Virus record (IMG/VR): IMGVR_UViG_3300043411_001575
Coordinates: 64,001 to 128,000 of that record
Reading direction: 5' to 3' (one strand)
DNA from: a virus
DNA: 64,000 nucleotides
Both the position numbers and the translations under genes were made by a program. Below the pieces are notes generated by a model. That model was not told the origin of the DNA, did not search any database, and worked only from the letters and a program-made list of their open reading frames with translations. Shown here piece by piece: positions 25,766-45,071 of the stretch. How positions within the stretch are numbered: the first letter of the stretch is position 1; the number at the start of each line of letters is the position of its first letter.

Positions 25766-25996
25766 AATCTTTTCACAGTTTTGAAAAAACTGAAAGAGTG
25801 CGTGGGCTTTTTCTTTTTTAATAATTTAATTGCCACTAACGTTGAAGGGCTTGGCGAAGGTGGGCTTGTAGGATGCTCAATTTTAGCAGAATGTTTCTGC
25901 CCACTTTTGCCAAACCCGTGTTATATGAAGTGCCGACTTATTTACGTTGAAGCCAAATTGGAACACTAAACAGAAAAACAAAAAGAAAAAAAAGGG

Positions 25997-26809
25997 ATGG
26001 AATTAAATAAAATACATTTAGGAGATTGTTTAGAAGTAATGAAAACTTTGCCAAATGAAAGCATTGATTGTATTGTTACTTCACCGCCATATTGGTTACA
26101 AAGAGATTACGGATGGGATGGACAATGGGGTATGGAAGAAACGTTTTATGAGTATTTGGATAAATTGTTTTTAATGATGGATGAAGCAAAACGAATATTG
26201 AAAAACGATGGAACTATTTTTGTAAATATTGGCGATGGCTATGCAAGAACAGGTGGAAAATCATTAGGTAAAAAACAACCAAACGCTTTATTGTATGCAA
26301 CACAAGAAGGGATAAGGGGCGGAAATAACAAGGGAGTTGCAGGAATACAAGATAAAACATTACTACAAATACCATATCGTTTTTCTATTGGCTGTATTGA
26401 TAGAGGATGGATTTTGCGAAACAATATAATTTGGTTTAAAAGAAACGCAATGCCCGAAAGTGTAAAGGACAGATTTACAAAATCACACGAAGTAATATTT
26501 ATGTTTTCTAAAAACAAAGAATACTTTTTTGACGAAAAATTTGTAACACAAGATGTTTGGGATATTCCTTTAACTCCTAACGGCACAAAACATATAGCAT
26601 CTTACAATACTGATTTAATTGGCAGACCTATTGTTTGCGGTTGCAGAAAGGGTGGAATAGTATTAGATATGTTTTGCGGAGCAGGAACAACAGGAATAAG
26701 AGCATTAGAACTTGGGAGAAACTTTATAGGGATAGATGGTAAAAAGGAATACGTTGATATGGCACAACAAAGAATTAATGATATTGTATCACAACCACAA
26801 TTATTTTAA
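25997..26809 (+). CDS. DNA methyltransferase, beta class (SPPY)
   Basis: TSPPY, LDMFCGAGTT. Confidence 0.9.
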   Translation: MELNKIHLGDCLEVMKTLPNESIDCIVTSPPYWLQRDYGWDGQWGMEETFYEYLDKLFLMMDEAKRILKNDGTIFVNIGDGYARTGGKSLGKKQPNALLYATQEGIRGGNNKGVAGIQDKTLLQIPYRFSIGCIDRGWILRNNIIWFKRNAMPESVKDRFTKSHEVIFMFSKNKEYFFDEKFVTQDVWDIPLTPNGTKHIASYNTDLIGRPIVCGCRKGGIVLDMFCGAGTTGIRALELGRNFIGIDGKKEYVDMAQQRINDIVSQPQLF

Positions 26810-27059
26810 AAGTGCGGTGGCTTTTTTCTTTTTGTTTTTCCTTCACGGAACTTCAATTGGAAACGGTCAGCAAGGCATTTCATATAACGACCGTGTGTTT
26901 ATGTCAGGTTTTGCTTTTCGCAAAACTTGCATTAAACACAATGTTAGCAAAGTGCGTTGGCTTGTGGGTGGCTCGTTGTATTTAATAAAAAAGAAAAAAA
27001 GGAAGGCGTGTGTTGGCTATTTTAATTTGTAAATTTGTATAAACATAAATCATATAAAA

Positions 27060-27896
27060 ATGAGTAGATATAATAATAGTGGAGATATTGAAGAAGTTTT
27101 ACCGAAAGAGGTATTACAGAAAATAAAAGACAAATTCAAAGCAAAGAGTTTTAAAAAACTTGGTTCAGGTAGATATGGAAGTGCTTTTAAAATAAGTCCA
27201 AAAAAGGTTTTGAAAATCACAAAAGATTTGAAAGAGTATGAATATGCTAAAAAAATTGAAGGACTGAAAAATAAACATATTGCTGATGTTTATGAAACAT
27301 ATCACTTTGAATATGGCGACACAAAGTATGCTGTAATAATTAAAGAATATTGCAATATTGGAGAAGCATATTTTGATAAACTAATAGATAGTTTTGCTGA
27401 ATACACGGGAAACGAAATGTCATTATCATTTGTTTCATCTGAATTTTTGCACGGAGATTTATCAAAGGCGGTTTTTGATAACTACTTTAAAAAGTATAAG
27501 CAAAATCAAGGTTACGCAACAGGATTTGCAGATGATTGGCAAGAAATGATAATGGAATTAAAGAACAAAAAAATCTATGTTAAAGATTTTAACGGTGCTA
27601 ATATTGGAACGAAGCCGAGTAATAATAACATCTGCATCATTGAACTTGGATTAGGTTATTGGGAAACCATAAAATTACCTGATGCAGACAAAATAATATT
27701 AAAGGAAGGTGGAACTATAATTGGAAATTTTGAACCGCTTGGCTCTGCAAAAGAATTAGGAATTAAACCGAAGATTGAGGGACACGATATGATTGCCATT
27801 TGTGATTGTGGAGAAAAATTTAGTTACCAAAACTCAAAGAAGAATATTGTTTGGGAATGTCCTGAATGTAAAAGAAGAAATAAGATTGTAGAATGA
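27060..27896 (+). CDS. Protein-kinase-like protein with C-terminal Zn ribbon
   Basis: LGSGRYGSAF, VLKIT, DFNGANIG; CDCG..CPEC. Confidence 0.65.
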   Translation: MSRYNNSGDIEEVLPKEVLQKIKDKFKAKSFKKLGSGRYGSAFKISPKKVLKITKDLKEYEYAKKIEGLKNKHIADVYETYHFEYGDTKYAVIIKEYCNIGEAYFDKLIDSFAEYTGNEMSLSFVSSEFLHGDLSKAVFDNYFKKYKQNQGYATGFADDWQEMIMELKNKKIYVKDFNGANIGTKPSNNNICIIELGLGYWETIKLPDADKIILKEGGTIIGNFEPLGSAKELGIKPKIEGHDMIAICDCGEKFSYQNSKKNIVWECPECKRRNKIVE

Positions 27897-28063
27897 TTTT
27901 AAACCTTTTCACAATTTTGAAAAAATTGAAGGGAGCGTGGGCTTTTTCTTTTTTATTAAATACAATGTTTGCTAACGCATATCGGCTAAACGCAGTATTT
28001 AAAAACTTTTGCGAGGGAAATTCGTAAATTTGACAATTATAAACAATTAAAAAACAAAACAAA

Positions 28064-28240
28064 ATGGCAACAGAAAAAAAGTATGCGGTTTTCGCTACAT
28101 TCAAAACAACAGGTAGAGAAAGTGAAATGACACTACCTATGACAAAAAAAGAAGCTGAAAAGGCTTTATCTGCTTTAAAGGAAAAATCAGCCGAGTTCAA
28201 AAAATTGAACTTTAAAGGATTTAAGATAAAGGCAGTTTAA
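28064..28240 (+). CDS. Small protein carried in a hairpin loop (58 aa, not in ORF track)
   Basis: MATEKKYAVF...KIKAV* inside 27977-28292. Confidence 0.6.
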   Translation: MATEKKYAVFATFKTTGRESEMTLPMTKKEAEKALSALKEKSAEFKKLNFKGFKIKAV

Positions 28241-28540
28241 TTATCTCATTAGTGCGGTGGGAAAGTTTTTAAATATTGTCGTTTTAGCCGTTGTTATGCG
28301 AAGGTGTGGCAATTCCAAAATTTCAAATTATAGACAAAACTTTCTTGCCACACTTTTGCATAACGTTCCGAGTATTGGAGCAGTGCGGATTTAAACCACA
28401 AATGTTGATATAAAAAATGAAACTTAAATAAACCGATAACCTTTATTAGAAGCACTAAACCCGCATTGCTTACAATACTGTGTTATAGGGAGTGTTTTTA
28501 AAATTTTAGCGGGGATAATTACTAAATTTACAATAAAAAA

Positions 28541-28930
28541 ATGTCAGCAAAATCATATCAAGCACCTGCCAATAAAAAAGTTTATAGAGCAGAAAAAAAA
28601 GGAGTAAAAGGAAACTGGTTTGCATTAAGTAAAGATGATGCAATAGGTTACGGAAATTTTGGTTACAAAATTGTTTCAAAATCAATAGGAGGCAAGAAGT
28701 TTTTATATGCTTCTGAATTAGAAGATGGCGGAACTTATTTTGATACCATAATCAAAAAATTCCCTAAACTTTTCAAAATAAATAAAGGTATTTTATGGAA
28801 TGACTATGAATTGAAAGTATCTCCAAGTGAACTATGGAGAGAGTGTGAAGCATTTTTAAAAAAAGAAGGTTATTCTGGAATATTTACAGGGAAGAAACTT
28901 TCTATTGATTATGAACTTTTTTTGTTTTAG
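28541..28930 (+). CDS. Cassette protein, possible ADP-ribosyltransferase-like fold
   Basis: KVYRA, WFA..DAIGY, LKKEGYSGI. Confidence 0.4.
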   Translation: MSAKSYQAPANKKVYRAEKKGVKGNWFALSKDDAIGYGNFGYKIVSKSIGGKKFLYASELEDGGTYFDTIIKKFPKLFKINKGILWNDYELKVSPSELWRECEAFLKKEGYSGIFTGKKLSIDYELFLF

Positions 28931-29057
28931 GTGCGTGGGAAAAATTTTAAAAACATTTGCTATAACGTATATCGGCTAAATGCAGTATTTAAAAACTTTT
29001 GCGTGGGAATTTAATTCGTAAATTTGATAATTATAAACCAATAAAAAACAAAATAAA

Positions 29058-29249
29058 ATGGCACAAACAAAAAAAGAGAAACGAGTAATTGCAAGAGCAA
29101 GATACATCGTTGAAGTATTCGCAAAAAGTCATTATGATTCAAGAGATTTGTTTAAGAAAATGACTAAAGAAGAAAAGAAAATAACCATTGATTACATCGA
29201 GAGAATTGGCGAAAGTGCCGTTAGTAGGTATTTATATCAATGGTATTAA
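29058..29249 (+). CDS. Small protein carried in a hairpin loop
   Basis: Inside 28967-29299. Confidence 0.6.
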   Translation: MAQTKKEKRVIARARYIVEVFAKSHYDSRDLFKKMTKEEKKITIDYIERIGESAVSRYLYQWY

Positions 29250-29602
29250 TTCTCTCATTAGTGCGGTGGGAAAGTTTTTAAATATTGAGTTTAGCCGTTG
29301 TTATGCGAAGGTGTGGCAACTGCAAAATTTCAAATTATAGACAAAACTTTCTTGCCACACTTTTGCATAACGTTTTGCAGCTAAACGCTGATTTTGTTCT
29401 TCACAAAATTTGCGATTTAGGTGCTGTTACCTGCTGATGCGGTTTCATAGTACAAATGCTGATTTGGAACATAAAACTAAGGGTTTAATTTTTTTCTTTT
29501 TTTTAGTGGAGGAAAACTTTTTCTTTTTTACTTGCTAATTGACAATTTATGTTTATCTTTGTAGCATATAATTTAACAATAACAATTTAAAACAAAAACA
29601 AA

Positions 29603-29896
29603 ATGGCTGACATCGCATTACCAAAATCAAACCTTTACCTTGAAGGTAGCGGACTTGACACAAACGGAAACAAAGTTGTAAAACTTGGAATTTCAAGTTT
29701 ACCGAAAAACTTTAGTATTCAAACTAATGGCAATTTGCCGAAAACTGGAAGTATCCTTCGTGGCTTGAAAACCAAAAAGGATATGGAAAGCGTGAGTAAA
29801 TCCGATTTGCAAATAATTTCAAAAGAAGTTGTTGCATACATTAAGGAGTTTGGCTCAAAACTGCAAAGAGAAAAATTAAGAACTTACAACTCTTAA
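29603..29896 (+). CDS. Small cassette protein
   Basis: Lies between promoter and HTH gene. Confidence 0.65.
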   Translation: MADIALPKSNLYLEGSGLDTNGNKVVKLGISSLPKNFSIQTNGNLPKTGSILRGLKTKKDMESVSKSDLQIISKEVVAYIKEFGSKLQREKLRTYNS

Positions 29897-29898
29897 TT

Positions 29899-30063
29899 AT
29901 GGAGCAACTATCTGTAACCGATTATGCAAAATTGCTTGGTGTAACTCGCCAAGCAATTTTGTTACAGATAAAAGAAAAAAGGTTGCCGAAAAATGTTACA
30001 GTTAAAAAAATTGGTAATACTTACTCCTTATCTGTGCGTGGGCAAAAAAAAGAAAAAAAATAA
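29899..30063 (+). CDS. Small HTH regulator, copy 4
   Basis: MEQLSVTDYAKLLGVTRQAILLQIKEKRLP. Confidence 0.8.
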   Translation: MEQLSVTDYAKLLGVTRQAILLQIKEKRLPKNVTVKKIGNTYSLSVRGQKKEKK

Positions 30064-30277
30064 ACCCGACTTCTACCACAAATGTTCATTCGGAGCAACA
30101 AAGTAGCATTTGCAGGTAACGGACGAGGCTATGAGCAGTTGAGCGTAGCCTGTGCGATGGAAAGAATTGCTTATAGCCTGTGTTATGCAAGTGCGTTGGC
30201 TTGTGGGTGGCTCGTTTCAAAACTCTTTTTCTTATTTTTTAGGGAGGGATTTTTATTTTCTTTTTTAACAACAAAAA

Positions 30278-30484
30278 ATGGCTGATTCAATCGGTGGCTT
30301 AGAAGGCACAAAAACTAAATTTTTCATAGATGTAAAAGTTCCTATCAGAGCAGGGATGGAGTTTGGCACAAAGAATTATAAAATAAGAACAATCGGATAT
30401 GAGGTTTTTCGACAATACTTTGATACTAAAGAAAAGGATATGCAAGTAGGTAGGCAAAGAATTGAAAGAAAAATAAATAACTAA
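30278..30484 (+). CDS. Small cassette protein
   Basis: ORF in unit 30182-30918. Confidence 0.5.
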   Translation: MADSIGGLEGTKTKFFIDVKVPIRAGMEFGTKNYKIRTIGYEVFRQYFDTKEKDMQVGRQRIERKINN

Positions 30485-30562
30485 CTTTTACTTGCTAATT
30501 GACAAATTATGTTTATCTTTGTAGCAGATAATTTAATATTAACAATTTAAAAACAAAACAAA

Positions 30563-30733
30563 ATGGCAAAAAGTAGTTATTACAAGTACGCAGTTGTAGC
30601 GGTAAACACAAAAACAGGTGAAGAAAGTTTAGTATGCAAAGTTCGTGCTGCTGGGGACTTAAACAACATTTTACACGGATTAGAAAAAGCAGTAGGAAGC
30701 TCTCCTATTAAATACAAATCTAAAAAACTGTAA
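30563..30733 (+). CDS. Small cassette protein (56 aa, not in ORF track)
   Basis: MAKSSYYKYAVV...KSKKL* after the promoter. Confidence 0.6.
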   Translation: MAKSSYYKYAVVAVNTKTGEESLVCKVRAAGDLNNILHGLEKAVGSSPIKYKSKKL

Positions 30734-30735
30734 AA

Positions 30736-30957
30736 ATGGAACTATCTGTAACAGAATATGCAAAATCGCTTGGCGTAACTCGTCAGGCGATTTTGTTACA
30801 GATTAAGGAAAAAAGGTTGCCTAAAAATGTTACGGTTAAAAAAATTGGTAATACTTATTCTTTATCTGTGCGAGGGCAAAAAAAAAATAAGAAAAAGAGT
30901 TTTGAAATGTTGCATAACGTTATCAGGCTTGGCGAAGTGCCGCTACTCGAAACTTAA
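30736..30957 (+). CDS. Small HTH regulator, copy 5 (reads through into the next hairpin)
   Basis: MELSVTEYAKSLGVTRQAILLQIKEKRLP. Confidence 0.75.
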   Translation: MELSVTEYAKSLGVTRQAILLQIKEKRLPKNVTVKKIGNTYSLSVRGQKKNKKKSFEMLHNVIRLGEVPLLET

Positions 30958-31051
30958 ATTTTAGCACTAAACTATCCTGCGGCATTTTGCCAAACCCGTG
31001 TTATGGGATAGTTTTAAAAACCTTTTAGGGTGGGCATTAAAAAACGAAATA

Positions 31052-31510
31052 ATGATAATAGCAATTGATTTTGACGGAACTTGCGTAACACACGAATTTC
31101 CCAAAGTGGGCAAAGACATTGGTGCTGTGCCTGTATTGAAAGAGTTGGTTAAAAATAACCACCAATTAGTTTTGTTTACAATGAGAAGTGATATAGTTAA
31201 TCCAACTGGCGAGGATAACGAATTGCACCTTGAAAGTGGGAACTATTTAACTGATGCAATTGAATGGTTTAAACAAAACGAAATACCGCTTTATGGAATA
31301 CAAACCAACCCGACACAGCACACTTGGACTACAAGCCCAAAAGCATACGCACAACTTTACATTGATGATGCTGCTTTAGGTTGCCCACTTTTGGTTGACA
31401 TTGTAAAAGATGGTGACGAAAGCATTAAGCAAGTTGGACGACCTTATGTTAATTGGGAGAAGGTAAAAGAAATGCTAATTGATAAAGGAATTATTGATGA
31501 TGAGGACTAA
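31052..31510 (+). CDS. HAD-superfamily phosphatase-like protein
   Basis: IAIDFDGT, LFTMR, K..A.LYIDD. Confidence 0.8.
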   Translation: MIIAIDFDGTCVTHEFPKVGKDIGAVPVLKELVKNNHQLVLFTMRSDIVNPTGEDNELHLESGNYLTDAIEWFKQNEIPLYGIQTNPTQHTWTTSPKAYAQLYIDDAALGCPLLVDIVKDGDESIKQVGRPYVNWEKVKEMLIDKGIIDDED

Positions 31511-31645
31511 CCCGTGCGGTGGGAAAAGGTTTTTAAAATTTCCCATAACGGTTCGTGGCTATAAGAAGTAAAACCCATTTTTGAGCGGTGGAAAATTTCG
31601 TATCTTTGTAACGCAATATTGCAAATAAATATAATACTTTAAAAA

Positions 31646-31858
31646 ATGGGAAAAAAAATTGCTTACGTTATTATGGGTGGCGATGATTATGTAACAGAAT
31701 CTTCATCATCAAGGAACAATGGATATGCTTTTACGCATAATCTACAAGGTGCAACTTTTTTTGATTCCAAAGAAAAAGCAGATAATTGTATTAAAAACAA
31801 AAATCTCGAATTTCATCTTGGAAGAAAAGTAAAAGCAAAAAAAGTTTCATTGGTTTAA
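31646..31858 (+). CDS. Small protein carried in a hairpin loop
   Basis: Inside 31550-31901 with its own TATCTTTG element. Confidence 0.6.
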   Translation: MGKKIAYVIMGGDDYVTESSSSRNNGYAFTHNLQGATFFDSKEKADNCIKNKNLEFHLGRKVKAKKVSLV

Positions 31859-32084
31859 TCTAAGCGGTGCGTTGGCAGGGGTTTTATTTCTTATAGCCCC
31901 TGTTATAGCATCGTTTTAATGTGCTATAACGGTTTGCGTATATGAGAAGTGGCACTTGCACGAACTTAAAATTTAGCACAAATGTTTCTGTGCCATTTCT
32001 TATATACGCTGTTATAGCCAGTAGGGATTTTTAGCACAAACGTTTAATCGAAGCACTAAAAGAAAAATTAAAAAAAGAGAAGGG

Positions 32085-32840
32085 ATGGAAATAAATAAAA
32101 TATACACAGGAGATAATTTGGAATTGCTTAAAACATTCCCTGATAACACTATTGATTTGATTGTTACCTCACCAAATTATAATAATTGGAGAAACAGAAG
32201 AACACAAGCAAGTAGGAAAGATTTTTGGGAACGAACCAATATAACTTATGATAATTGCACAGACAAAGAAGATGATGAAACATATGAAGCAAGGCAAATA
32301 GAAATAATAAATGAGATGGTAAGAGTTCTAAAACCAACTGGAACAATTTGCTACAACCACAAAGATAGAATATTTGAATTTGAAGTAAAATCACCTTTGG
32401 AATGGATTTTAAAGACAAATGCAAAATACAGACAGAGAATTACATGGGATAGATGTGGTATGCAAGCGTATAATCCTGTTAGATTTTATAGGGTTGATGA
32501 AGATATTTATATACTTGGAAAAGAAGCAAAGGGATTTACTTGGAATAAAGAAGCTGCAAAGTATTTAAGTATTTGGCGAATTGTTCCAAACAAAAATATT
32601 TACGGACATAATGCTACATTTCCAGAAGAACTTGTAAAAAGATGTGTTGAAGCATTTACCAATGAAGGAGATTTGGTTTTAGACCCATACAACGGAACTG
32701 GAACAACAACCAAAGTAGCTTATGAGATGAAAAGAAATTTTATCGGAATTGATAATTCTGAAAAATATAATGAAATAGCTGAAACTCGTATTAAAGAGTG
32801 CGGTGGGTCTTTTTTTAATTTTTCTAACGAAAATGATTAA
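32085..32840 (+). CDS. DNA methyltransferase, beta class (SPNY)
   Basis: TSPNY, HNATFP, LDPYNGTGTT. Confidence 0.9.
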   Translation: MEINKIYTGDNLELLKTFPDNTIDLIVTSPNYNNWRNRRTQASRKDFWERTNITYDNCTDKEDDETYEARQIEIINEMVRVLKPTGTICYNHKDRIFEFEVKSPLEWILKTNAKYRQRITWDRCGMQAYNPVRFYRVDEDIYILGKEAKGFTWNKEAAKYLSIWRIVPNKNIYGHNATFPEELVKRCVEAFTNEGDLVLDPYNGTGTTTKVAYEMKRNFIGIDNSEKYNEIAETRIKECGGSFFNFSNEND

Positions 32841-33079
32841 TCGAAGCACTTCACCCCTATTGGCTATAACGGTGGCGATTGGCGAAGTAAAAGCATTTCA
32901 CTGCTGCTGATGGTTATCACTATGCTCAATGGCTTTTATTTTGCCAATTGCGTGTTAGCTGCTGTTTTTTTTCTCTTTGATTGTCAGTACTTTAGAAAAT
33001 AATTTAAAAATATCTTTGAAAATGTTTGCAGATTCAAAATAATGTTGTATCTTTGTTCTACAATTAAAAACAAAATAAA

Positions 33080-33423: not shown

Positions 33424-33542
33424 CAGCTAACGGTTTGCAGCTAACAGAAGTGGCTGCTTGTAAGAACTTCTGAATTAAAAACAAATGCTTTGCAGCCATT
33501 TTTGTTAGGTGCTGTTATAAGCTGTAAAATAAAATTTGAGCG

Positions 33543-33716
33543 ATGGACACATACTTAAAATATTTAGATACAGATGAAATGAGGCTCATTATGGATGTGC
33601 AAAAAACACTTCCACAAAAAGGCTTTACTTACATAAGAGATGAAAAGAAAATAGGCAGAAATGAGCCTTGTAAATGCGGAAGCAATAGGAAGTACAAAAA
33701 ATGCTGTGGTGCGTAG
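33543..33716 (+). CDS. SEC-C metal-binding motif mini-protein (57 aa, not in ORF track)
   Basis: [22 protein letters not shown]. Confidence 0.75.
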
Positions 33717-33848
33717 GCAATTTTATTTTATTGCTTATAACGTAGCGGGGCTTTGCGTAGTAGCCCTTAGTAGAAACTTAAAATTAACCACGACACTTGA
33801 TAGGGCTATTACGCAAAACCCTTGTTATGTGCCGTTTTTATTCGGATT

Positions 33849-34403: not shown

Positions 34404-34602
34404 AATGGCACATAACGGTTTGCAGCTAAACGCTGATTTTGTTCTTCACAAAATTTGCGATTTAGGTGCTGTTATGTATCAGTTTATTTTTTACTTTTTT
34501 GCGTTGGCTTTCAATTAGTTACACAATTTAACAAAAATAATCTTGAAATTGTTTGCAGATTCAAAATATAGCCGTATATTTGTATCAACAAAACGAAACA
34601 AC

Positions 34603-35004
34603 ATGGAAACAATTGAAAAAAAAATATTAGGATTCACAGAAGAAATAACAGTTTGTGATTGCTGTGGTAAGGCTGATTTAAAAGGAACTTACGCTATTGA
34701 TTGGGAAGGTACAATTGCATATTACGGAAGCGTTTGTGCTTTTAAAGTGCATGGTGCTACTATTGAAGAGCAAAAGGAAGTGAAGAAAGCATACACTAAA
34801 AGAATGAAAGCGACTGAAAAATTAGCACAAATGGAAGCTGAATACAATGGAACACAATATGCTTTAGTAAAAATGTTTCGTTTTGTTGAAGAGAAGAAAT
34901 TGGATGTAATGGCTTTCATTAATAAATACGGAAAAAAATGTGATGAGAACGATTATTACATTGCTTACGAAATTGGACACGTTGTAAAATGTATAGACAA
35001 ATGA
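34603..35004 (+). CDS. Cassette hypothetical protein with Cys motifs
   Basis: CDCCGK..YGSVCA; own promoter. Confidence 0.65.
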   Translation: METIEKKILGFTEEITVCDCCGKADLKGTYAIDWEGTIAYYGSVCAFKVHGATIEEQKEVKKAYTKRMKATEKLAQMEAEYNGTQYALVKMFRFVEEKKLDVMAFINKYGKKCDENDYYIAYEIGHVVKCIDK

Positions 35005-35297
35005 AAGAATGTACAATGTGCGCTTTAAAAGAGCCTGAATTTAAAAAGTGCATTTTTAGCGATTGCCCTAATGGTGTAAATTTTGTAACCTGCGATTGTG
35101 GAGAGAAAATTTACAACACGGATGGCAAAAAAGCGAAGTGCAAAAAATGCAAACCACATGGAGGTAAAAGGCTAAATGCAGGACGAAAAAGCCAATACAA
35201 AGAAGAAACGCAAACAATTTCTTTCCGTGTACCAAAATCACTAATTGAACCGATTACAAAATACGTCAAACGTGCGCTGGCAAAAAGTAAAAAATAA
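35001..35297 (+). CDS. Zn-finger + GG-motif/RHH-like regulator
   Basis: CxxC pairs; HGGKRLNAGRK..TISFRVP. Confidence 0.6.
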   Translation: MKECTMCALKEPEFKKCIFSDCPNGVNFVTCDCGEKIYNTDGKKAKCKKCKPHGGKRLNAGRKSQYKEETQTISFRVPKSLIEPITKYVKRALAKSKK

Positions 35298-35495
35298 ATT
35301 GTACATAACGTTTTGCGTATATGAGAAGTGGCACTTGCACAAACTTGAAATTTAGCACAAATGTTTCTGTGCCATTTCTTATATACGCTGTTATGTGTAG
35401 TTGCGGTTTAATAGCAGGGAGTTCAATTTGAAATGAGATACTTTTTCTTTTCTTTTTTGAGCGATGGCAAAAATAAATTTGAAAAATTTAAAAAT

Positions 35496-36308
35496 ATGAT
35501 TGATATAAACAAGAATTACAATGAAAGTAATTTAGAAACAATGGCAAAGATGCCTGATTGCTTTGTAGATTTAACAGTAACATCTCCACCTTATGATGGA
35601 TTGCGAACTTATAATGGATATTCATTTCCATTTGAAGATATTGCAAAGGAGTTGTTTAGAATTACAAAAGATGGTGGCGTATTAGTTTGGGTTATTTCAG
35701 ATGCTACCGTTCAAGGAAATGAAAGCGGAACATCATTTAAACAAGCCTTATATTTCAAAGAGATTGGTTTTAATTTGCACGACACAATGATTTGGATTAA
35801 AGACGGTGGTGGTGCAGTAGGAAGCAATAAGTGTTACACACAAAACTTTGAATATATGTTTGTGTTTTCAAAAGGAAAAATAAATACTACAAATCTAATT
35901 TATGATAAACCAAACGCTTCTTTTGGTAAAGATAAAAGCGGAGTAGGTAGAAGATTGGTAACTGGTGAACACAAAATAGAAAAGCGTAAACCAAGTGCCG
36001 AATTTAGTAGAAGAAACAACTATTGGTATATCGCACCACAAAAAGGCGAACACCCTGCGGTATTCCCAGAAGCACTTGCAAATGACCATATTTTAAGTTG
36101 GAGTAATGAGAATGACTTAATTTATGACCCATTTATGGGAAGTGGTACAACCGCTAAAATGAGTATTCTAAATAACAGAAATTGGATAGGCAGTGAATTA
36201 TCCTCTGAATACTGTGATATGATTGTGCAACGAATTAAAAAAGCGTTGGAAGAAAAAAGAAAAGAAAAAGATTTAATAGCAAACTCTTTATTTGGAAACG
36301 ACTTTTAG
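35496..36308 (+). CDS. DNA methyltransferase, beta class (SPPY)
   Basis: TSPPY, HPAVFP, YDPFMGSGTT. Confidence 0.9.
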   Translation: MIDINKNYNESNLETMAKMPDCFVDLTVTSPPYDGLRTYNGYSFPFEDIAKELFRITKDGGVLVWVISDATVQGNESGTSFKQALYFKEIGFNLHDTMIWIKDGGGAVGSNKCYTQNFEYMFVFSKGKINTTNLIYDKPNASFGKDKSGVGRRLVTGEHKIEKRKPSAEFSRRNNYWYIAPQKGEHPAVFPEALANDHILSWSNENDLIYDPFMGSGTTAKMSILNNRNWIGSELSSEYCDMIVQRIKKALEEKRKEKDLIANSLFGNDF

Positions 36309-36489
36309 CAATTACACATAACGTTTTGCGGCTTTGCGTTCGGTTTTTTGCCTTATCCGAATGTCCAAATTTAGCACAATGTTTAAAGGCAAAAACTGAC
36401 GCAAAACCGATGTTATAAGCTGGCTGCGGTTTATTAAACGAAAAGCTAAATACGAAGCACTAAAGAAAAGAATTTAAAAAAAGGAAGGG

Positions 36490-37949: not shown

Positions 37950-38097
37950 TAGAGGTGGAGTTCGGGATGGGGCTGGTAGAAAAAAAGCAGACTACGAAAC
38001 AAAAACTATTTCCTTTCGTGTTCGTCTTGAATTTGTAGAACCGATTAAAAAGATGGTCAAGGATTATGTTTCGGAGCGTCTTAAAGGTGACGCATAA
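37930..38097 (+). CDS. RGG-motif/RHH-like regulator (55 aa, not in ORF track)
   Basis: RGGVRDGAGRKK..TKTISFRVR. Confidence 0.65.
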   Translation: MKKKKTNRGGVRDGAGRKKADYETKTISFRVRLEFVEPIKKMVKDYVSERLKGDA

Positions 38098-38168
38098 CGT
38101 TCGAGGGCTTGGCGAAGTGGCTGAACCTGAAGCTAAATAGAATTACTAAACTTAAAAATTAAGAACGA

Positions 38169-38939
38169 ATGATTGATAGAATTACTGAACAGCCATTTTG
38201 CCAAACCCGTGTTAGTGGCAGTACTTTTGTGAATGCTGATTGCTTTGATGTTTTTCCTTTTATCGAGGATAAATCAATTGATGCTATTATTGCCGATTTG
38301 CCTTATGGAACTACTCAAAATAAATGGGATAGTATTTTGCCACTTAATAAACTTTGGAAAGAATACAAGCGGATTTTAAAAGATAGTGGTTGTGTTGTTC
38401 TTTTTGCTCAAACTCCATTTGACAAAGTACTTGGTTGTTCAAATTTAGATTGGTTAAAATACGAATGGATTTGGGATAAAAAACTTGGAAGTGGTTCTTT
38501 GAATGTAAAAAAAATGCCTTTAAAAAGACACGAAAATATATTAGTATTTAGCAAAGGGAAAACCACATATAATCCACAAATGACAAAAGGTAAATTTAGA
38601 AATAAAAGTACAAGTAAGCCATCATCTAATAAAGGTAATTACGGAGAAATAACACACCAAAAAGATAATTTTAATGATGATTATTATCCAACCACTATTT
38701 TAGAATTTACTAATGCAAATGTAAGAGCAAGGGTTCATCCAACTGAAAAACAATTATCTCTTATGGAATACCTTGTAAAAACATACACAAACGAAGGCGA
38801 TACAGTTTTAGATAATACAATGGGTTCAGGAACAACAAACTTGGCTTGTATCAAATTAAATCGCAAATCAATTGGAATTGAAAAGGAAAAACAATATTAC
38901 GATGTCGCTGTTCGGAGGGCTTCGGAGTATTGCCACTAA
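38169..38939 (+). CDS. DNA methyltransferase, beta class
   Basis: ADLPY, HPTEK, LDNTMGSGTT. Confidence 0.9.
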   Translation: MIDRITEQPFCQTRVSGSTFVNADCFDVFPFIEDKSIDAIIADLPYGTTQNKWDSILPLNKLWKEYKRILKDSGCVVLFAQTPFDKVLGCSNLDWLKYEWIWDKKLGSGSLNVKKMPLKRHENILVFSKGKTTYNPQMTKGKFRNKSTSKPSSNKGNYGEITHQKDNFNDDYYPTTILEFTNANVRARVHPTEKQLSLMEYLVKTYTNEGDTVLDNTMGSGTTNLACIKLNRKSIGIEKEKQYYDVAVRRASEYCH

Positions 38940-39188
38940 CGTTTTGCGTATATGAGAAGTGGCACTTGCACAAACTTGAAATTTAGCACAAATGTTTCTG
39001 TGCCATTTCTTATATACGCTGTTATGCCCTCGTTGCGGTAATTTTAGAACTAACTTCAATCGAAGCACTAAGGCATTTTTATTCTTTTTGTGGGAGGGTT
39101 GAAAACTTTTTTAAAATAACACTTGCTAATTAGCAAAATATAGTTACTTTTGTAACGCAATAATGCAGAAAACTAAAATTTAAAAACA

Positions 39189-39419
39189 ATGTCAAAAGCA
39201 GTTTATCAATTATTATTTGCTAATCAATCTGCCGATTCAAAGGTGCGATATGAATTAGTTAGAGAAACAAAAATGTATGTTTTTTTAAGAGAAATCACAA
39301 AAGAACCTCAATACATTTTTAGAGTTCACAAAAAAACATTAAGCGTTAAGGGTATCAAGGAAGGTAAAAATGGTTATCAATTTGACGTGGCTGACGCAAG
39401 AATTTTAAAAAAAGTATAA
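39189..39419 (+). CDS. Small cassette protein
   Basis: Lies between promoter and HTH gene. Confidence 0.65.
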   Translation: MSKAVYQLLFANQSADSKVRYELVRETKMYVFLREITKEPQYIFRVHKKTLSVKGIKEGKNGYQFDVADARILKKV

Positions 39420-39421
39420 CT

Positions 39422-39607
39422 ATGCGACTATCTGTAACAGAATACGCAAAACAGCTTGGTGTAACTCGTCAAGCTGTTTTGTTACAGATTAAAGAAAAAA
39501 GGTTGCCTAATAATGTTAAGTCTGAAAAAATTGGCAACACTTACTCTTTAACTGTGGGTGGGCAAAAAAAGAATAAAAATGCTTCCAATAAACTACAATC
39601 GAAGTAG
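39422..39607 (+). CDS. Small HTH regulator, copy 6
   Basis: MRLSVTEYAKQLGVTRQAVLLQIKEKRLP. Confidence 0.8.
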   Translation: MRLSVTEYAKQLGVTRQAVLLQIKEKRLPNNVKSEKIGNTYSLTVGGQKKNKNASNKLQSK

Positions 39608-39738
39608 TATCGTAGCAATGGGGCATAACGGTTGAGTGTATGAGTAGTGTGGCTTTGTACATACTCTCGACTTACAGATAAATTTATTTAGCCACATTAC
39701 TTATACACTTTGTTATAGGTATGTAAAATTTACGGATT

Positions 39739-39933
39739 ATGAAACAGAAATATGTAAGATGCTTAGATAAGTTTGAAGTAGAATTAAAAGAAGGTGATAT
39801 TGTTGATGTTCAAATGGATGGTGAACATGAAATATATAAGAAAGAAGGTGGACAACTCTACTTCAAACCTTATGGAAAAGAAGATATGGTAAGTGCTTAC
39901 TTCTCAAATGATATGATTAAGGTAGAACGGTAG
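39739..39933 (+). CDS. Small cassette protein (YopX-like motif)
   Basis: LDKFEVELKEGDIV. Confidence 0.5.
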   Translation: MKQKYVRCLDKFEVELKEGDIVDVQMDGEHEIYKKEGGQLYFKPYGKEDMVSAYFSNDMIKVER

Positions 39934-40217
39934 TAAATTTTATTACCTATAACGGACGAGTATTGGCGAAGAAGCGGACTTTTACCACTAAAGTTGATAC
40001 GAAGAACTAATGTTGATGTTACTACAAACGTTCATACGAAGCACTAAAACCGCTTTTTTGCCAATACTTTGTTATGCGTTCGCCTTATTTTTTCGTGTTG
40101 ATTTTCAGTAAGTTAGAAAATATTTTGAAAATAAATCCAAAATACTTTGAAAAAAGTTTGCAGTTATCAAAATAGGTTGTATATTTGTACTCAGATAACA
40201 ATTAAAAAATAAACAAA

Positions 40218-40463
40218 ATGAGAACATTGATTTTAGAAGCAAACGTAATTGAAACTAAAAACAGTTACACAATAGACACTACTATTGAAAAAGAATGGGG
40301 AATGAAAAAACCTATAATGAAAAAAATTCTTTACGGGATAGAAATTCAAAAGCCAACTGCATATAGAATTTATAATCATGGAAACGGTTCTTCAAGAACT
40401 TGGGTGTTTGGTGATTTGGAAATAAACCCAGATAGTAGAAGTGTTAAAAAATTGGCAAAGTGA
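40218..40463 (+). CDS. Small cassette protein
   Basis: Same promoter scaffold as unit 37442. Confidence 0.65.
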   Translation: MRTLILEANVIETKNSYTIDTTIEKEWGMKKPIMKKILYGIEIQKPTAYRIYNHGNGSSRTWVFGDLEINPDSRSVKKLAK

Positions 40464-40627
40464 AAAAGAAAAAAGAAACGAGAGGGGGCAAACGCTCCTT
40501 CTCTGGTCGCAGAAAAGCATCATACGAAACTAAAACTATTTCCTTTAGAGTTCGTATTGAATTTGTCGAACCGATTAAAAAGATGGTTAAGGATTATGTT
40601 TCGGAGCGTCTTAAAGGTGACGCATAA
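40460..40627 (+). CDS. RGG-motif/RHH-like regulator (GTG start, not in ORF track)
   Basis: Paralog of 37930-38097. Confidence 0.65.
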   Translation: MKKKKETRGGKRSFSGRRKASYETKTISFRVRIEFVEPIKKMVKDYVSERLKGDA

Positions 40628-40750
40628 CGTTTTGCGTGTATGAGCAGTGGCACTTATACAACGCTTGAATTTGACCACAAAACTTCCTGTGCCATTGCTT
40701 ATACACGCTGTTAGCAGTAGTACGGATTATTAACGAATAAATTAAATAGA

Positions 40751-41545
40751 ATGAGTAATAAAATAGATTTAGATAAATATTATACACCATTGGATAAAGC
40801 TAAATATTGTATTGACAAGGTGTATGAAATTATCGGAGAGAATAATATAAGCGAAGCTATTGAACCAAGCGCAGGTAACGGTAGTTTTAGCTTACAAGTG
40901 CCGACTACTTGTTGGGCTTATGATATTGAACCTGAACACGAAAGTATTATAAAGCAAGATTTCTTGACGTTGGATGTTGATTATCTTTATGGTAGGTTAA
41001 TAATTGGAAACCCACCATTCGGCAGTAGAATGAATTTAGCACAAAAATTTTTCAAAAAAAGTATTGAATTAGGTGACTATGTTGCATTTATATTACCAAT
41101 TAGTCAATTGTGGAATACTAACAGTTTATTTGAATTTGATTTGATTCATAGTGAAGATTTAGGTAAAGTAAAATATAGTGATAGAGATTTACATTGTTGC
41201 TTTAACATTTATAAAAGACCTGAAATTGGATTGAATAACAGACCAAAAAACAAACTAAACTCTGTTAGTATAACAAGACAGGATAGCAAAGGATATGATA
41301 CTATCAATGATTTTGATATAAGAATGTGTTATTGGGGAAATGGGAGTGCTGGAAAAATACTAAAAGAAGGTGAAACTTATAGTGCGGAATACAAGATAAA
41401 AGTAAATGATGAATTTAGAAAAGACGTAATAGATGTTCTTTCTAATATTAATTGGTTTGATGAACTGAATTGTATTGCTATGTTAAAAATTCAACAATTT
41501 CACATAATCAATGTACTGAAAAAGTATGTGCCAAACATTGATTAA
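40751..41545 (+). CDS. N6-adenine DNA methyltransferase, gamma-like motif order
   Basis: DKYYTP, IEPSAGNGSF, IGNPPF. Confidence 0.85.
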   Translation: MSNKIDLDKYYTPLDKAKYCIDKVYEIIGENNISEAIEPSAGNGSFSLQVPTTCWAYDIEPEHESIIKQDFLTLDVDYLYGRLIIGNPPFGSRMNLAQKFFKKSIELGDYVAFILPISQLWNTNSLFEFDLIHSEDLGKVKYSDRDLHCCFNIYKRPEIGLNNRPKNKLNSVSITRQDSKGYDTINDFDIRMCYWGNGSAGKILKEGETYSAEYKIKVNDEFRKDVIDVLSNINWFDELNCIAMLKIQQFHIINVLKKYVPNID

Positions 41546-41620
41546 TAGCACTAACGTAGTATTACTGCTAACGGTTACGGCTTTGTGCAGTGTGGGAAAT
41601 TGAAAAACAAAATTTGAATT

Positions 41621-42424
41621 ATGCAGAAAAGTTTATTTGAAAACGAAATGTTGAATATAGTACAAAAGCCCACATTGCACAAAGCCGATGTTAGCCGCAG
41701 TACATTCTATCAGGGTGATTGTCTTGTGGAAATGGATAAGATTTCCGATAAAAGTGTGGATATGATTTTATGTGATTTGCCTTATGGAACAACAGCTTGC
41801 AAATGGGATAGTGTCATTCCTTTTGAGCCACTTTGGAAGCAATATGAAAGGATTATAAAAGATAACGGGGCAATAGTTTTGACAGCTTCGCAACCATTTA
41901 CAACAATATTAATAAGCAGCAATATAAAGTTATTCAGGTATGAATTAATTTGGCAAAAGGATAAGGCAAGTGGGTTTTTAAATGCTAATAAAATACCATT
42001 GAAAGCACACGAAAACGTTTTAGTATTTTACAAAAAGTTACCTACATATAATCCGCAAAAAACCATTGGTGGGCTGCAAAGGAAAAGGACAAGGAAAAAA
42101 CCAACGCATGAGGTTTTAGGTAAAACTGGTGTAAATGAAAAACACGTTATTTGGCAAGATAACACAAGATACCCTATAAGTGTTTTAGAATTTGATGTAG
42201 ATACTATTAACCACAGTTTGCACCCTACTCAAAAACCAATAGCATTAATGGAATATTTAATAAAAACCTACACCAACGAAGGAGAAACAGTTTTAGATAA
42301 CTGTATGGGTTCAGGAACAACTGGTGTGGCTTGTAAAAAAACAGGTAGGCACTTTATCGGAATAGAAAAGGATGAAAAGTATTTTGAAATTGCCGTTAGC
42401 AGGGTGTCTGCGTATTGCGGCTAA
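41621..42424 (+). CDS. DNA methyltransferase, beta class
   Basis: CDLPY, HPTQKP, LDNCMGSGTT. Confidence 0.9.
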   Translation: MQKSLFENEMLNIVQKPTLHKADVSRSTFYQGDCLVEMDKISDKSVDMILCDLPYGTTACKWDSVIPFEPLWKQYERIIKDNGAIVLTASQPFTTILISSNIKLFRYELIWQKDKASGFLNANKIPLKAHENVLVFYKKLPTYNPQKTIGGLQRKRTRKKPTHEVLGKTGVNEKHVIWQDNTRYPISVLEFDVDTINHSLHPTQKPIALMEYLIKTYTNEGETVLDNCMGSGTTGVACKKTGRHFIGIEKDEKYFEIAVSRVSAYCG

Positions 42425-42485
42425 CGTTTTGCAGATAGGCGTTGTTGCCTCACAAATGATTGATTGAAACACTAAATTTAATAAT

Positions 42486-42827
42486 ATGGGAAATGATAAT
42501 TTAAAAACGGAAAGCAATAACGCCAATGTGCTGTTAGGTGCTGGGTTTGTTTACTTGGTAGAATGTTCATCAGGAAGTTGGGATAGTTACCATTGGTGGG
42601 TTGGAGGAATATTTGAAAAGCAAGAAGATGCTGATAAATATGCACAAAGCTTGAATGATGAAAACAAACGATTAAAAGAGGTTGAATGCTCAATAAAAAC
42701 ACCATTTGAAGATATGACTGATGAAGAAGAAACGGAGTATTACAGGTGGTGGAATGGTAACAATGATGCTATGGAATGGAATGGTGCTAAAGTTAAGCAG
42801 TACCCCATAAACAAACCTTGCACCTAA
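42486..42827 (+). CDS. Cassette hypothetical protein
   Basis: Starts in the hairpin; stop codon is in the TAAC core. Confidence 0.65.
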   Translation: MGNDNLKTESNNANVLLGAGFVYLVECSSGSWDSYHWWVGGIFEKQEDADKYAQSLNDENKRLKEVECSIKTPFEDMTDEEETEYYRWWNGNNDAMEWNGAKVKQYPINKPCT

Positions 42828-42975
42828 CGATTGGGTGTATGAGAAGGTTTGCTTAGATGAACTTTTAAATTTACACAGAATTTTATAGCAAACTTTCTTA
42901 TACACCTTGTTATGTACAGGCACGGTAAATTACCGATGAACTTAATTAAATGAACGAAACTAATAATTTTTAAAA

Positions 42976-43716
42976 ATGTGGGATGGCAAATATGCTTTTG
43001 AAAAAAGCAAAATAATACAAGGAGATAGTTTGGATAAAATAAAATATATACCTAATGGCAGTATTGACTTAATTGTAACTGACCCACCGTATAAAATGAC
43101 GAAACAAGGTAATTCTTGCAGACCAAATTATATGAAAAGTGGAATGGGTGAAAACTTATTTGATGGTGAATTACCAAATACAAAAGAATGGATGAAACTT
43201 TGTTTTGATAAACTAAAAGACGATGCCCATTTCTATGTATTTACCAATATAAATAGTTTGCACGAATACCTTGATGTTGCAAAAGAATGTGGATTTAAAC
43301 TACATAATATTATAAGTATGATTAAAGATACCAAAATGCCTAATAGATGGTATTTAAAATACACTGAATTTGTATTGTTTTTTAGAAAAGGTAAAGCGTT
43401 TCCAATAAACGATATGACAAGTAGAGATTATGAATTTGTTGAAACACCAACATTAAAAAATGGCAAAATACATATATCACAAAAACCATTGAATTTTATT
43501 GAAAAACTAATAACAAATTCATCAAATGAAGGTGAAATATGTTTGGATTTATTTAGTGGAAGCGGAACACTTGCAGAAGCCTGTATAAATACAAATAGAG
43601 ATTTCATTATTATAGAGAAAAACCCAAATGACTTTGAAAAAGGCAAAGAAAGGGTGGGAAAAATTTTTAAAAATTATGGAATTAACATACAACCTTTAAT
43701 CGAAGCACAAATGTAG
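42976..43716 (+). CDS. DNA methyltransferase, beta class (DPPY)
   Basis: TDPPY, HISQKP, LDLFSGSGT. Confidence 0.9.
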   Translation: MWDGKYAFEKSKIIQGDSLDKIKYIPNGSIDLIVTDPPYKMTKQGNSCRPNYMKSGMGENLFDGELPNTKEWMKLCFDKLKDDAHFYVFTNINSLHEYLDVAKECGFKLHNIISMIKDTKMPNRWYLKYTEFVLFFRKGKAFPINDMTSRDYEFVETPTLKNGKIHISQKPLNFIEKLITNSSNEGEICLDLFSGSGTLAEACINTNRDFIIIEKNPNDFEKGKERVGKIFKNYGINIQPLIEAQM

Positions 43717-43910
43717 TGCTTGTACATAACGTTTTCGGGCTTGGCGAAGGTGGGCTTGTAGGATGCTCAATTTTAGCACAATGTGTCTGCCCACTTTTGC
43801 CAAACCCGTGTTATATGAAGTGCCGACTTATTAAGCAGAATTTTAAATTGAAACTATAAACAGAAAAACAAAAAAGAAAAAAAGCGTAGGGAATTTTAAA
43901 AACAAACAAT

Positions 43911-44177
43911 ATGGAAAAGAATTTTATTGAAAAAGCAGAAAAAGAAATTGGTAGAAAATTTGGTTTTTTCATCAGATGTGATGATAAAAACAAACCAACA
44001 GAAGTATTAACCGATATGTACTTTGAACTATGGGAAACAGAAAAGATGAACGAGATTTTATCTTTATGCGAAACACATAATCTTAAATACGATTTTGGTT
44101 TAGAAAGTTTTGATACCAAAATAGATGCTATTGAACAAGAAATATGTATTGTTTCAACTAATTGCGAAAATTCATAA
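43911..44177 (+). CDS. Cassette hypothetical protein
   Basis: Operon with the downstream MTase. Confidence 0.6.
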   Translation: MEKNFIEKAEKEIGRKFGFFIRCDDKNKPTEVLTDMYFELWETEKMNEILSLCETHNLKYDFGLESFDTKIDAIEQEICIVSTNCENS

Positions 44178-44178
44178 A

Positions 44179-44922
44179 ATGGAAGCAAATACGATTTACA
44201 AAGGCGATTGCTTTGAACTTATAAAGCAAATAACAAAAGCAGATAACGTCAAACTTATTATTACAGACCCACCATATTTACATAATAAAGGAGGTGGGAA
44301 AACATCGGGAACAGAGGGTAAAAGTTCAATAGCTAATAGCCCTATGTATAAATTCGATTCATTTATGATGGAAGATATGAGTTCTTTTTTAGAGGAAGAT
44401 GTTTATAATCTATTAGATGAATATAAAAGAATAATGACAAAATTAAACTGCTTTATATTTACTAATGACACTTTGATACCGTATTATACAATGTGGGCAG
44501 TTAAAAACAATAAAAAGTTTACAATTTTAACTTGGGAAAAACCATTGTCGATTTTAAACAGAAATAGATTTAGTCAGAATTTAGAATATGTTGTGAGGAT
44601 TTACGACAATGGAACTGCACTTAATTTAATAGATTTAGAAGCATATCCCGAAAAGAAAAACTACTACTCAAAAAACAGAAGGTTAAATTCGCCTACAAAT
44701 AAGATACACCCAACCCAAAAACCATTAGAATATCTACTTGGATTGATTGAGTTAAATACAAATGAAGGCGATTTAGTATTAGATACGTTTTTTGGTAGTG
44801 GACAAACAGGTAAGGCTTGTCAGATTTTAAATAGAAATTATATCGGTTTTGAAAGAGAAGAAAAGTATGTTGAATTATCAAATAAATATTTACAACAAGG
44901 ATTTGAAAAAACACTATTTTAA
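44179..44922 (+). CDS. DNA methyltransferase, beta class (DPPY)
   Basis: TDPPY, HPTQKP, LDTFFGSG. Confidence 0.9.
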   Translation: MEANTIYKGDCFELIKQITKADNVKLIITDPPYLHNKGGGKTSGTEGKSSIANSPMYKFDSFMMEDMSSFLEEDVYNLLDEYKRIMTKLNCFIFTNDTLIPYYTMWAVKNNKKFTILTWEKPLSILNRNRFSQNLEYVVRIYDNGTALNLIDLEAYPEKKNYYSKNRRLNSPTNKIHPTQKPLEYLLGLIELNTNEGDLVLDTFFGSGQTGKACQILNRNYIGFEREEKYVELSNKYLQQGFEKTLF

Positions 44923-45071
44923 AAGTGTGGTGGCTTTTTTCTTTTTGTTTTTCATTAACGGAACTTCAATTGGAAACGGTCAGCAAGGCATTTCATATAA
45001 CGTTCGAGGGCTTGGCGAAGTGGCTGAACCTGAAGCTAAATAGAATTACTAAACTTAAAAATTAAGAACGA

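Follow-up and report, generated by a model that had tools for sequence, protein, structure and literature searches.

Paired inner arms and G-rich words frame exchangeable genes in an integron-like cassette array of a phage-like Bacteroidota replicon

Inner arms and G-rich words in the cassette array

The stretch of DNA analyzed here, referred to below as the window, comprises 64,000 nucleotides (nt) of IMG/VR record IMGVR_UViG_3300043411_001575 and corresponds to bases 64001-128000 of a single 169,658-bp contig. Its GC content is about 30%, nearly all genes lie on the + strand, and GC skew is positive over the whole window. Repeats are restricted to about 13.3-51.7 kb (window coordinates, as are all positions below), where 44 TAACG...GTTA hairpins delimit short cassettes. 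The cassettes belong to an integron-like array of ~38 kb, carried by a phage-like Bacteroidota replicon of 170 kb. About a third of these cassettes also contain a second A/T-rich inverted repeat inside their ends, with a G-rich word (G-word) at each border of the enclosed genes, and it is this inner element and its reuse around different genes that concern us. A sequence-only reading of the window had proposed that the words are footprints of gene capture into pre-formed scaffolds.

The architecture runs box, arm, word, cargo, word, arm, box, and frame A (25920-26888, + strand) exemplifies it. An attC-like core hairpin TAACG...GTTA (25837-25923, +), of a type like that ahead of 43810, precedes this frame. 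Its outer left arm GTTATATGAAGTGCCGAC (25920-25937) is complementary to the outer right arm (26865-26888), which ends in the TAAC box; further in, an A-rich left arm (25973-25993) is complementary to a T-rich right arm (26821-26841). The left word GGGATGG (25994-26000) contains the start codon (25997-25999) of the cargo, an N6_N4 DNA methyltransferase of 270 amino acids (aa) (25997-26809), and the right word GTGCGGTGG (26812-26820) lies 2 nt past the stop TAA (26807-26809); all of these features are on the + strand. Arms are in general 15-30 bp, A/T-rich and complementary, and words are about 9 nt long, on the same strand and mutually non-complementary. The 228-nt unit at 33514-33741 (+) consists of an arm (33514-33537), the word GAGCGATGG (33538-33546), an open reading frame (ORF) for a 57-aa SEC-C protein, the word GTGCGTAGG (33709-33717) and a complementary arm (33718-33741). 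Here the ATG (33543-33545) lies inside GAGCGATGG and the stop TAG (33714-33716) inside GTGCGTAGG, just as first read.

In 12 cassettes, the co-folded 5' and 3' flanks yielded 24-56 inter-flank pairs, with z-scores of -5.6 to -14.9 against shuffles. The stem-extension script over-extends in AT-rich DNA, and only its z-scores were used, alongside flank co-folding. Three further units are of like build (26943-27976, 27973-28299 and ~28963-29307), and in the latter two the gene sits in the loop of the TAAC...GTTA hairpin itself. The "many" units first credited with inner repeats thus amount to 15 of the 44 hairpin-delimited cassettes, and a G-word on the same strand stands directly at both inner arm ends in every one of the 15. 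The + strand folds slightly better than the - strand in 11 of the 12 long-repeat frames.

The enrichment statistics called for by the sequence-only reading agree with this picture. The motif GWGCGNTGG occurs 20 times on the + strand and never on the - strand of the window, against 0.63 +/- 0.79 expected and a largest shuffle count of 3, and all copies fall within 19.6-46.8 kb. A looser right-word pattern on the same strand is found 32 times in the 38-kb array vs 3 times in the other 131 kb of the replicon, and none of 234 genes outside the array has a G-word at its start or stop. A Chi-like hotspot was one role considered for the words, which resemble known Chi sequences and are confined to the array. 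Several simpler roles were considered for them and dropped. Pairing between left and right words holds at 5 of 7 positions in frame A and is absent from other families, and for a G-quadruplex between words the G-run content is too inconsistent. An intrinsic terminator at word plus T-arm was likewise rejected, a terminator-like hairpin being found at none of them; of five terminator-like sites in the window, only 25731-25760 resembles a terminator by eye. Promoter-like sites are at shuffle level (40 vs 39.0).

Furthermore, the module extends well beyond the window. In 1.4 Mb of public loci, which were fetched by frame-A motifs, 153 word pairs are immediately flanked by complementary arms, vs 0 in a control that looks for arms at a distance of 40 nt (73 vs 0 in an earlier run). 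These pairs sort into 41 arm families in which the arms differ and the words do not, the consensus being AAGCGATGG on the left and GTGCGGTGG on the right. The two sides differ consistently, and word identity within a unit (5.90 of 9) equals that between units (5.86, p=0.42), so that a target-site duplication or duplication scar was discarded as their origin.

Words also occur where there is no cargo to border. In cargo-less hairpins of at least five core-stem families, the loop is exactly two tandem words, 3-4 nt apart (CTT, ATT or similar); the window example is the core hairpin at 30117-30185 (+), whose loop holds GAGCGTAG.. and GTGCGATGG (30152-30160). In the P-type frames described below, the 5' arm has a bulge made of this same tandem-word element. 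The words are therefore a component of hairpins, and they look like a built-in part of them rather than a footprint. Overall, the evidence bears out only part of the proposed capture into pre-formed scaffolds.

Frame A and its exchangeable cargos

Three pairs of units had been singled out in the window as common scaffolds carrying different genes, and two of them share both flanks. Frame A and its second copy, unit B (43810-45001, +), match at 88% on the left (25837-26004 vs 43727-43895) and at 97% on the right (26802-26889 vs 44915-45002), around two N6_N4 methyltransferases whose mutual identity is only 22%. The words of unit B are GCGTAGGG (43884-43891, with TAG in place of ATG) and GTGTGGTGG (44925-44933), and its cargo (+) has its own ATG at 43911, an additional 88-aa ORF, and the methyltransferase from 44179. 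The hairpin-loop unit at 27973-28299 (+; left word GCGAGGG at 28011-28017, promoter and 58-aa ORF, right word GTGCGGTGGG at 28252-28261) and its twin at ~28963-29307 (+; words at 29001-29007 and 29261-29270), named as 27977/28967, have both flanks in common around unrelated proteins of 58 and 63 aa. Their homology extends 45 nt beyond the left word to the ATG and resumes 13 nt before the right word. In the third pair, 18093/49911, common sequence is limited to the left flank and the last ~25 nt, the proteins are unrelated, and the word is absent from both junctions. Alignment therefore places the scaffold boundary at the words in frame A, as anticipated, and at ATG and stop codons in the other two pairs, the outcome that the sequence-only reading had named as contrary to its own proposal.

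Reuse of frame A is extensive. Its left end has an exact match in 70 IMG/VR contigs, and its right word plus T-arm in 55. It is also present in at least 120 metagenome contigs and 10 contigs of Bacteroidota metagenome-assembled genomes (MAGs), giving more than 175 public viral and metagenome contigs in total, reported from freshwater, groundwater, wastewater and estuary communities. In cultured phage records neither flank was matched, to which a low-complexity filter may have contributed. Units with both ends measure 449-1362 nt and carry 1-4 ORFs. After dereplication, the fetched loci hold 80 distinct cargo 3' ends and ~87 distinct 5' ends (a raw left count of 164 included reverse-complement matches of the right arm, which were subtracted), which bears out the idea of a reusable scaffold. 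The cargo families include N6_N4 and MT-A70 methyltransferases, Mom, PAPS-reductase-domain proteins, GNAT, the SEC-C peptide and unknowns. Since most are DNA methyltransferases and other DNA-modification genes, the frames are probably a way in which these phages trade anti-restriction functions.

At the left boundary, conservation stays at 88% or more up to and including the G that follows the ATG, apart from 80-82% at the A and T of this codon, and on the cargo side it fades over 5-8 bases. The ATG occupies one fixed base in ~63% of the ~87 distinct cargos; among control genes of the replicon, G at +4 is found in just 34%. At the right boundary, conservation is 65-75% at -7 to -5 and rises to 82-95% over the final four bases, with T-richness from -7, and the stop codon ends 0-3 nt ahead of the right word in 74 of 80 cargos. 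Variants of the left word go together with other starts: GTG serves as start in GCGTGGG, GCGTAGG is followed by cargo with its own ATG ~20 nt downstream (unit B is of this type), and with GGGAGGG a new ATG lies upstream, inside the frame. One and the same cargo (88% identical) follows two different left frames, the join falling exactly at G(C/G)GATGG, and one break is located within the right word, GTGCG|. On a MAG contig (L106:1168-1260), the left end of frame A joins other sequence after CACTAAAC, ahead of the A-rich arm, so that junctions are not all at the word.

The middle of frame A varies on the left and is conserved on the right, with only CAATTG in common. The right-flank middle (26840-26870, ..CACGGAACTTCAATTGGAAACGGTCAG..) is far better conserved than its left counterpart in all frame-A copies and does not pair with that part; possibly it is a functional element in its own right. 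A single compensatory change in the inner arm, from G-C to A-T (L027), was noted by eye and is anecdotal.

The contrast between frame and cargo is also visible in read depth. In four independent metagenomes from four studies, the frame is 30-100 times deeper than the cargo, with a summed depth for frame A of 207-838 vs 0-13 in three runs and of 47-208 vs 0-2 in run X9. Contigs with other cargo leave the window sequence at 25988-26002 and rejoin it at 26806-26811 in the four metagenomes, and replaced frame A cargo joins at 25992/25994 to 26807. In the second frame (26943-27976), alternative cargo joins at 27006/27933 in run X12. RNA runs hold at most 8% of the sampled words.

Further units, boxes and the recombinase

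The remaining framed units, all on the + strand, vary in their words and in what they carry. The frame at 26943-27976 has GTGTGTTGG (27008-27016) and GAGCGTGGG (27933-27941), and that at 48059-49030, with a PAPS-reductase-domain cargo, has GTGCGAGGG (48100-48108) and GTGCGTGGG (48988-48996). In two frames the left word provides the ATG of a methyltransferase: 32011-32870, with GGGATGG (32082-32088) and GTGCGGTGGG (32798-32807), and 35390-36322, with GAGCGATGG (35459-35467) and GCGTTGG (36243-36249). Methyltransferase cargo is also carried at 42909-43730, between GTGGGATGG (42978-42986) and GGGTGGG (43652-43658). Four others lie at 22307-22781 (GTGCGATGG, 22375-22383; GAGCGAAGG, 22709-22717), 29426-30120 (AGTGGAGGA, 29505-29513; GTGCGTGGG, 30034-30042), 34471-35309 (GCGTTGG, 34501-34507; GTGCGCTGG, 35272-35280) and 39021-39629 (GTGGGAGGG, 39090-39098; GTGGGTGGG, 39554-39562).

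The P-type frame at 16148-17098 (+) begins with a T-rich 5' arm and the word AGGGAGGGA (16208-16216), followed by a Bacteroidota-type promoter and ORFs. On its 3' side, the right word GTGCGTGGG (17050-17058) and the A-rich arm encode the C-terminus, ..SVRGQKK, of a small helix-turn-helix (HTH)-like ORF. This ORF (50-73 aa) occurs in at least seven copies, each time as the last gene of its cassette (16918-17070, 20036-20221, 25190-25348, 29899-30063, 30736-30957, 39422-39607 and 47233-47388). It had no match in Pfam or NCBIfam, and its repeated product may serve as an accessory protein. In several cassettes a Bacteroidota-type promoter (TTG-N20-TAnnTTTG) can be read.

The boxes of the 44 hairpins follow the logo ATTGCNNNTAAC|G and GTTANNNGCAGT, and the sites are imperfect palindromes with ...AAC / GTT... 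boxes, as in integron attC sites. T stands at -7 before TAAC in all 44 boxes, G stands opposite it at +7 after GTTA in 30 of 44 (13777-50894), and this conserved T.G wobble is found only on the + strand. By eye, the spacer of the sites is asymmetric (5 nt vs 1-2 nt) and G.T wobbles are present, and clearly bulged bases, of the extrahelical kind that sets strand choice in attC sites, are not evident; the left box may resemble the XerC arm of dif. Cassette starts are complementary to the box at their own end, with 29 candidate GTTA+8 / 8+TAAC pairs matching at 7 or more of 8 bases, several of which span more than one cassette.

One methyltransferase cassette of the window shows 85% identity to genes from cultured Flavobacterium phages (genus Muminvirus) in which the same hairpins are present. 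These 37-38-kb phages, mumin6-1 (MN812220, L001:600-3200) and tooticki6-1 (MN812240, L002:440-3630), have a three-cassette methyltransferase array with TAACG...GTTA hairpins, the last unit of which is followed by TAAC|TACAAT; their cassettes are tight ones only, without words. The two genomes are 99.8% identical around the site and differ by one inserted and one replaced unit, both changes being bounded exactly by TAAC|G ... TAAC|. In run X3, from groundwater, a population variant lacks exactly the hairpin plus the frame-A cassette, beside contigs carrying it; the skip runs from 25836 to 26885 (1048 nt, 5 shared letters) and is bounded by TAAC|G...TAAC. The mobile unit is therefore the hairpin plus the downstream ORF, with crossover at the left box. 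The classical integron crossover, at G|TT of the right box and with attC belonging to the upstream ORF, was not what these indels displayed. Breaks at GTTA also occur, and the cores upstream of one given frame differ between contigs, so that the right box is a break point as well.

At the downstream end of the array lies a gene for a 298-aa Xer-like tyrosine recombinase (51676-52572, +). Its best profile match is XerA/XerD-like, at 206 bits and below the cut-off of 220; against TIGR02249, the IntI-type integrase profile, it reached 154.8 bits, short of the cut-off of 265, in a match split into two stretches. The array terminates at CATAAC|GTGTATTTAATGG (51644-51703), 20-45 nt ahead of the recombinase start, so that the primary site would sit at the array's downstream end, beside a recombinase gene that reads in the same direction as the cassettes. 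A relative of the recombinase is found on contig L003, which stops at the gene and leaves no array for comparison.

Six methyltransferase ORFs of ~260 aa begin in the loop of the preceding hairpin (20240-20359, 22778-22897, 38095-38214, 44998-45117, 45879-45998 and 50775-50894) and continue through its 3' arm and GTTA box. They stop at the TAA of the next TAAC, and recombination-site DNA therefore encodes both protein termini. Outside the array, an Rfam scan of the window, in a database without an attC family, returned a permuted tmRNA gene as its sole match (RF04321, 51.9 bits; 807-961, - strand), just upstream of a phage-like gene block. Downstream of the array, an IS605 OrfB/TnpB-like gene (61757-62926, +) has OrfB_IS605, Cas12f1-like TNB and HTH domains.

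Interpretation and comparison with known systems

From the anatomy, strand bias, reuse and junction positions observed above, we infer that the words are bound or recognized, that the stem acts as DNA, and how cargo is swapped. In the reading we favor, and hold at about even chances, a foldable DNA frame belonging to the recombination system is closed on its inner side by the arms and words, the words are a recognized element at the stem-loop junction, and cargo is exchanged between them. The + strand of the non-coding cassette DNA could fold in two ways, either as the attC-like core hairpin TAACG...GTTA or as a "cassette stem" formed between the 5' flank that follows GTTA and the 3' flank that leads up to the next TAAC. 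The arm-word-cargo-word-arm module would close this stem beside the genes in roughly one cassette of three, as a probable recognition or clamping site on the folded + strand, and would mark the border between a constrained frame and free cargo. In the commonest frame, the module would supply translation signals as well, with the start codon in GCG-ATG-G and TAAAA-GTGCGGTGG as the context of the stop. Cargo of 1-4 ORFs, mostly DNA-modification genes, may then be replaced by recombination within the words and a few adjoining conserved bases. A role at the level of DNA is suggested because promoters lie inside the frame in several families, words fill attC-like loops, and no terminator is found at the words.

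It is important to consider that several observations weigh against this reading. Of 188 homology break-point pairs inside the window, only 3 fall at words. The block ends of a self-comparison were instead TAAC (36), ORF starts (31), GTTA (21) and ORF stops (15), so that most breaks fall on the boxes or on plain ATG and stop codons. ORF-precise mosaic junctions are also present inside cargo, without any word, and ORF-precise swaps with plain A-rich leaders occur as well; words are thus not needed for swapping. The enrichment of break-points at words over all loci (30% vs 0.08%) is real for frame A, but as an overall figure it is ascertainment-biased, the loci having been fetched with frame-A motifs. 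The ~35-nt middle of frame A is non-complementary and shows no covariation. In addition, no protein or activity is tied to the G-words, and frame A shows no internal promoter, which leaves room there for a role of the RNA.

Dedicated gene capture comes closest to what the sequence-only reading had in mind. The loop with two tandem words would be an attachment site, and a site-specific step would load start-to-stop cargo into it, making new cassettes. This would explain why cargo-less loops are exactly word-NTT-word in several stem families and loaded units are word-cargo-word, why about 80 unrelated cargos have one identical junction, why one cargo is joined at the word to two frames, and why one break lies inside the right word. 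However, an empty frame A was found in no collection (0 in the fetched loci, 2.9 million viral contigs and 241 million metagenome records, vs more than 55 viral and more than 120 metagenome loaded ones), which tells against a pre-formed scaffold, and no stem family was found in both the empty and the loaded state. Furthermore, conservation on the cargo side fades over 5-8 nt instead of ending at one bond, the words of one unit are no more alike than chance, and no candidate enzyme was identified. We regard capture as unlikely on this balance. Rather unlikely, too, is the broader notion of a second-tier system that uses the paired G-words for attachment and loads any start-to-stop gene block into a ready-made recombination hairpin loop. 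If true, it would be a natural "cloning site" that makes integron-type cassettes and lets Bacteroidota phages format counter-defense genes for exchange.

The arms could alternatively work in RNA, where the A-rich and U-rich strands would pair around each cistron in read-through transcripts, for RNase III-type processing or translation control. The words would then be unpaired determinants near AUG and stop, and reuse a by-product of cassette mobility. Genes and G.T (G.U) wobbles all lie on the sense strand, and the A-rich arm of frame A is an ideal Bacteroidota leader with the ATG within the word, both of which speak for such a device. On the other hand, P-type and 27977-type frames have a Bacteroidota-type promoter between the left word and the ORF, so that the cassette's own transcript lacks the 5' arm, and identical words occupy the loops of attC-like DNA hairpins. 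An RNA-level device seems a quite unlikely explanation of the module.

A third possibility is ordinary phage mosaicism with concerted evolution, in which gene conversion homogenizes the flanks, tracts end at the ORF, and words are conserved for an unrelated reason. The word-free, ORF-precise junctions at ATG and stop, in the window and inside cargo, fit well with this process, as does the gradual cargo-side decay of similarity, and very abundant frame copies could serve as conversion donors. Nevertheless, it leaves unexplained the presence of one word on both sides in 41 unrelated arm families and the fixed ATG base in most of the distinct frame A cargos, and we judge it improbable. A mobile hairpin frame is more improbable still. 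Here a non-coding module, traced round the cassette in its circular form as word, T-arm, box, core, box, A-arm, word and with the arms as its terminal inverted repeats, would insert in the manner of a miniature inverted-repeat transposable element (MITE) at stop/start junctions and turn resident genes into cassettes, which would agree with cargos that always run from start codon to stop codon with 1-4 ORFs. Against it, the flanking words are not duplicates (their identity within a unit equals the permuted value), and cores and flanks re-assort independently. A with/without polymorphism at a gene junction was not found, the observed indels being whole TAAC-to-TAAC units. Finally, chance or a compositional artefact of AT-rich, G-skewed sequence, to which the positive GC skew might point, is practically out of the question given the counts of words, arm-flanked pairs and genes outside the array reported above.

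Some features of the proposed foldable frame recall other known elements. Like MITEs and foldback elements, it has inverted repeats adjoining short direct repeats; unlike them, the direct repeats are not duplicates, so that the identical target-site duplication of a transposon is not seen, the inverted repeats lie outside the variable segment, and no link to a transposase was found. Long-range processing stems bracket rRNA genes such as 16S as RNase III substrates, and here too complementary sequences hundreds of bases apart bracket one unit, a likeness that would concern a possible way of working. In contrast to those stems, the promoter lies inside the stem in several frames.

As regards modular shuffling, T4-type phages offer a parallel in their mobile regulatory cassettes, the PeSLs (Arbiol et al. 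2010, PMC2839356; Comeau et al. 2014, PMC4122927). As in PeSLs, short conserved non-coding motifs stand beside non-essential ORFs in hyperplastic phage regions and mediate the insertion, deletion and replacement of modules through recombination of one copy with another. PeSLs, however, consist of a sigma-70 promoter and a local terminator stem-loop, whereas the arms described here pair across the whole gene and no terminator-like structure lies at the words. The PeSL combination of such a promoter with a terminator stem-loop beside the ORF was accordingly not encountered in these units, and, unlike PeSLs, the frames lie inside an attC-like site-specific system.

The system also resembles integrons, including attC clusters without integrase (CALINs). 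CALINs have been described in virulent phages, including Polaribacter phage P12002L with two methyltransferase cassettes, and phage-borne attC clusters with methyltransferase cassettes have been published for Flavobacteriia phages (Qi et al. 2023, PMC9892861), which makes the array itself one of a known kind. "Cassette genesis" has been named with its mechanism left undescribed (PMC8352920; bioRxiv 10.1101/2024.07.02.601686). For the two-sided frame with inner arms and G-words, no description was found in full-text literature searches. In the VCRs (Vibrio cholerae repeats) of Vibrio, many genes share near-identical recombination-site DNA, and the same holds here around many different genes. 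The likeness extends to imperfect hairpins with ...AAC / GTT... boxes, cassette starts complementary to their own ends, and arrays of short promoter-poor genes with methyltransferase cargo, as in Flavobacteriia phages. The differences from an integron are that the conserved part is a ~160-nt two-sided frame that extends to the start and stop codons and includes an inner inverted repeat as well as G-words; that the recombinase is Xer-like, under the IntI cut-offs, with its gene at the downstream array end; and that naturally occurring indels have their limits at the left box TAAC|G, the unit being hairpin plus downstream ORF. Integrons themselves raise two questions, namely, how cassettes of this type come into being and why so many unrelated genes carry almost the same recombination-site DNA, and the present system is an unusually informative case for both. 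With exact junctions, plentiful natural variants and a short list of separable mechanisms, this system makes cassette formatting testable.

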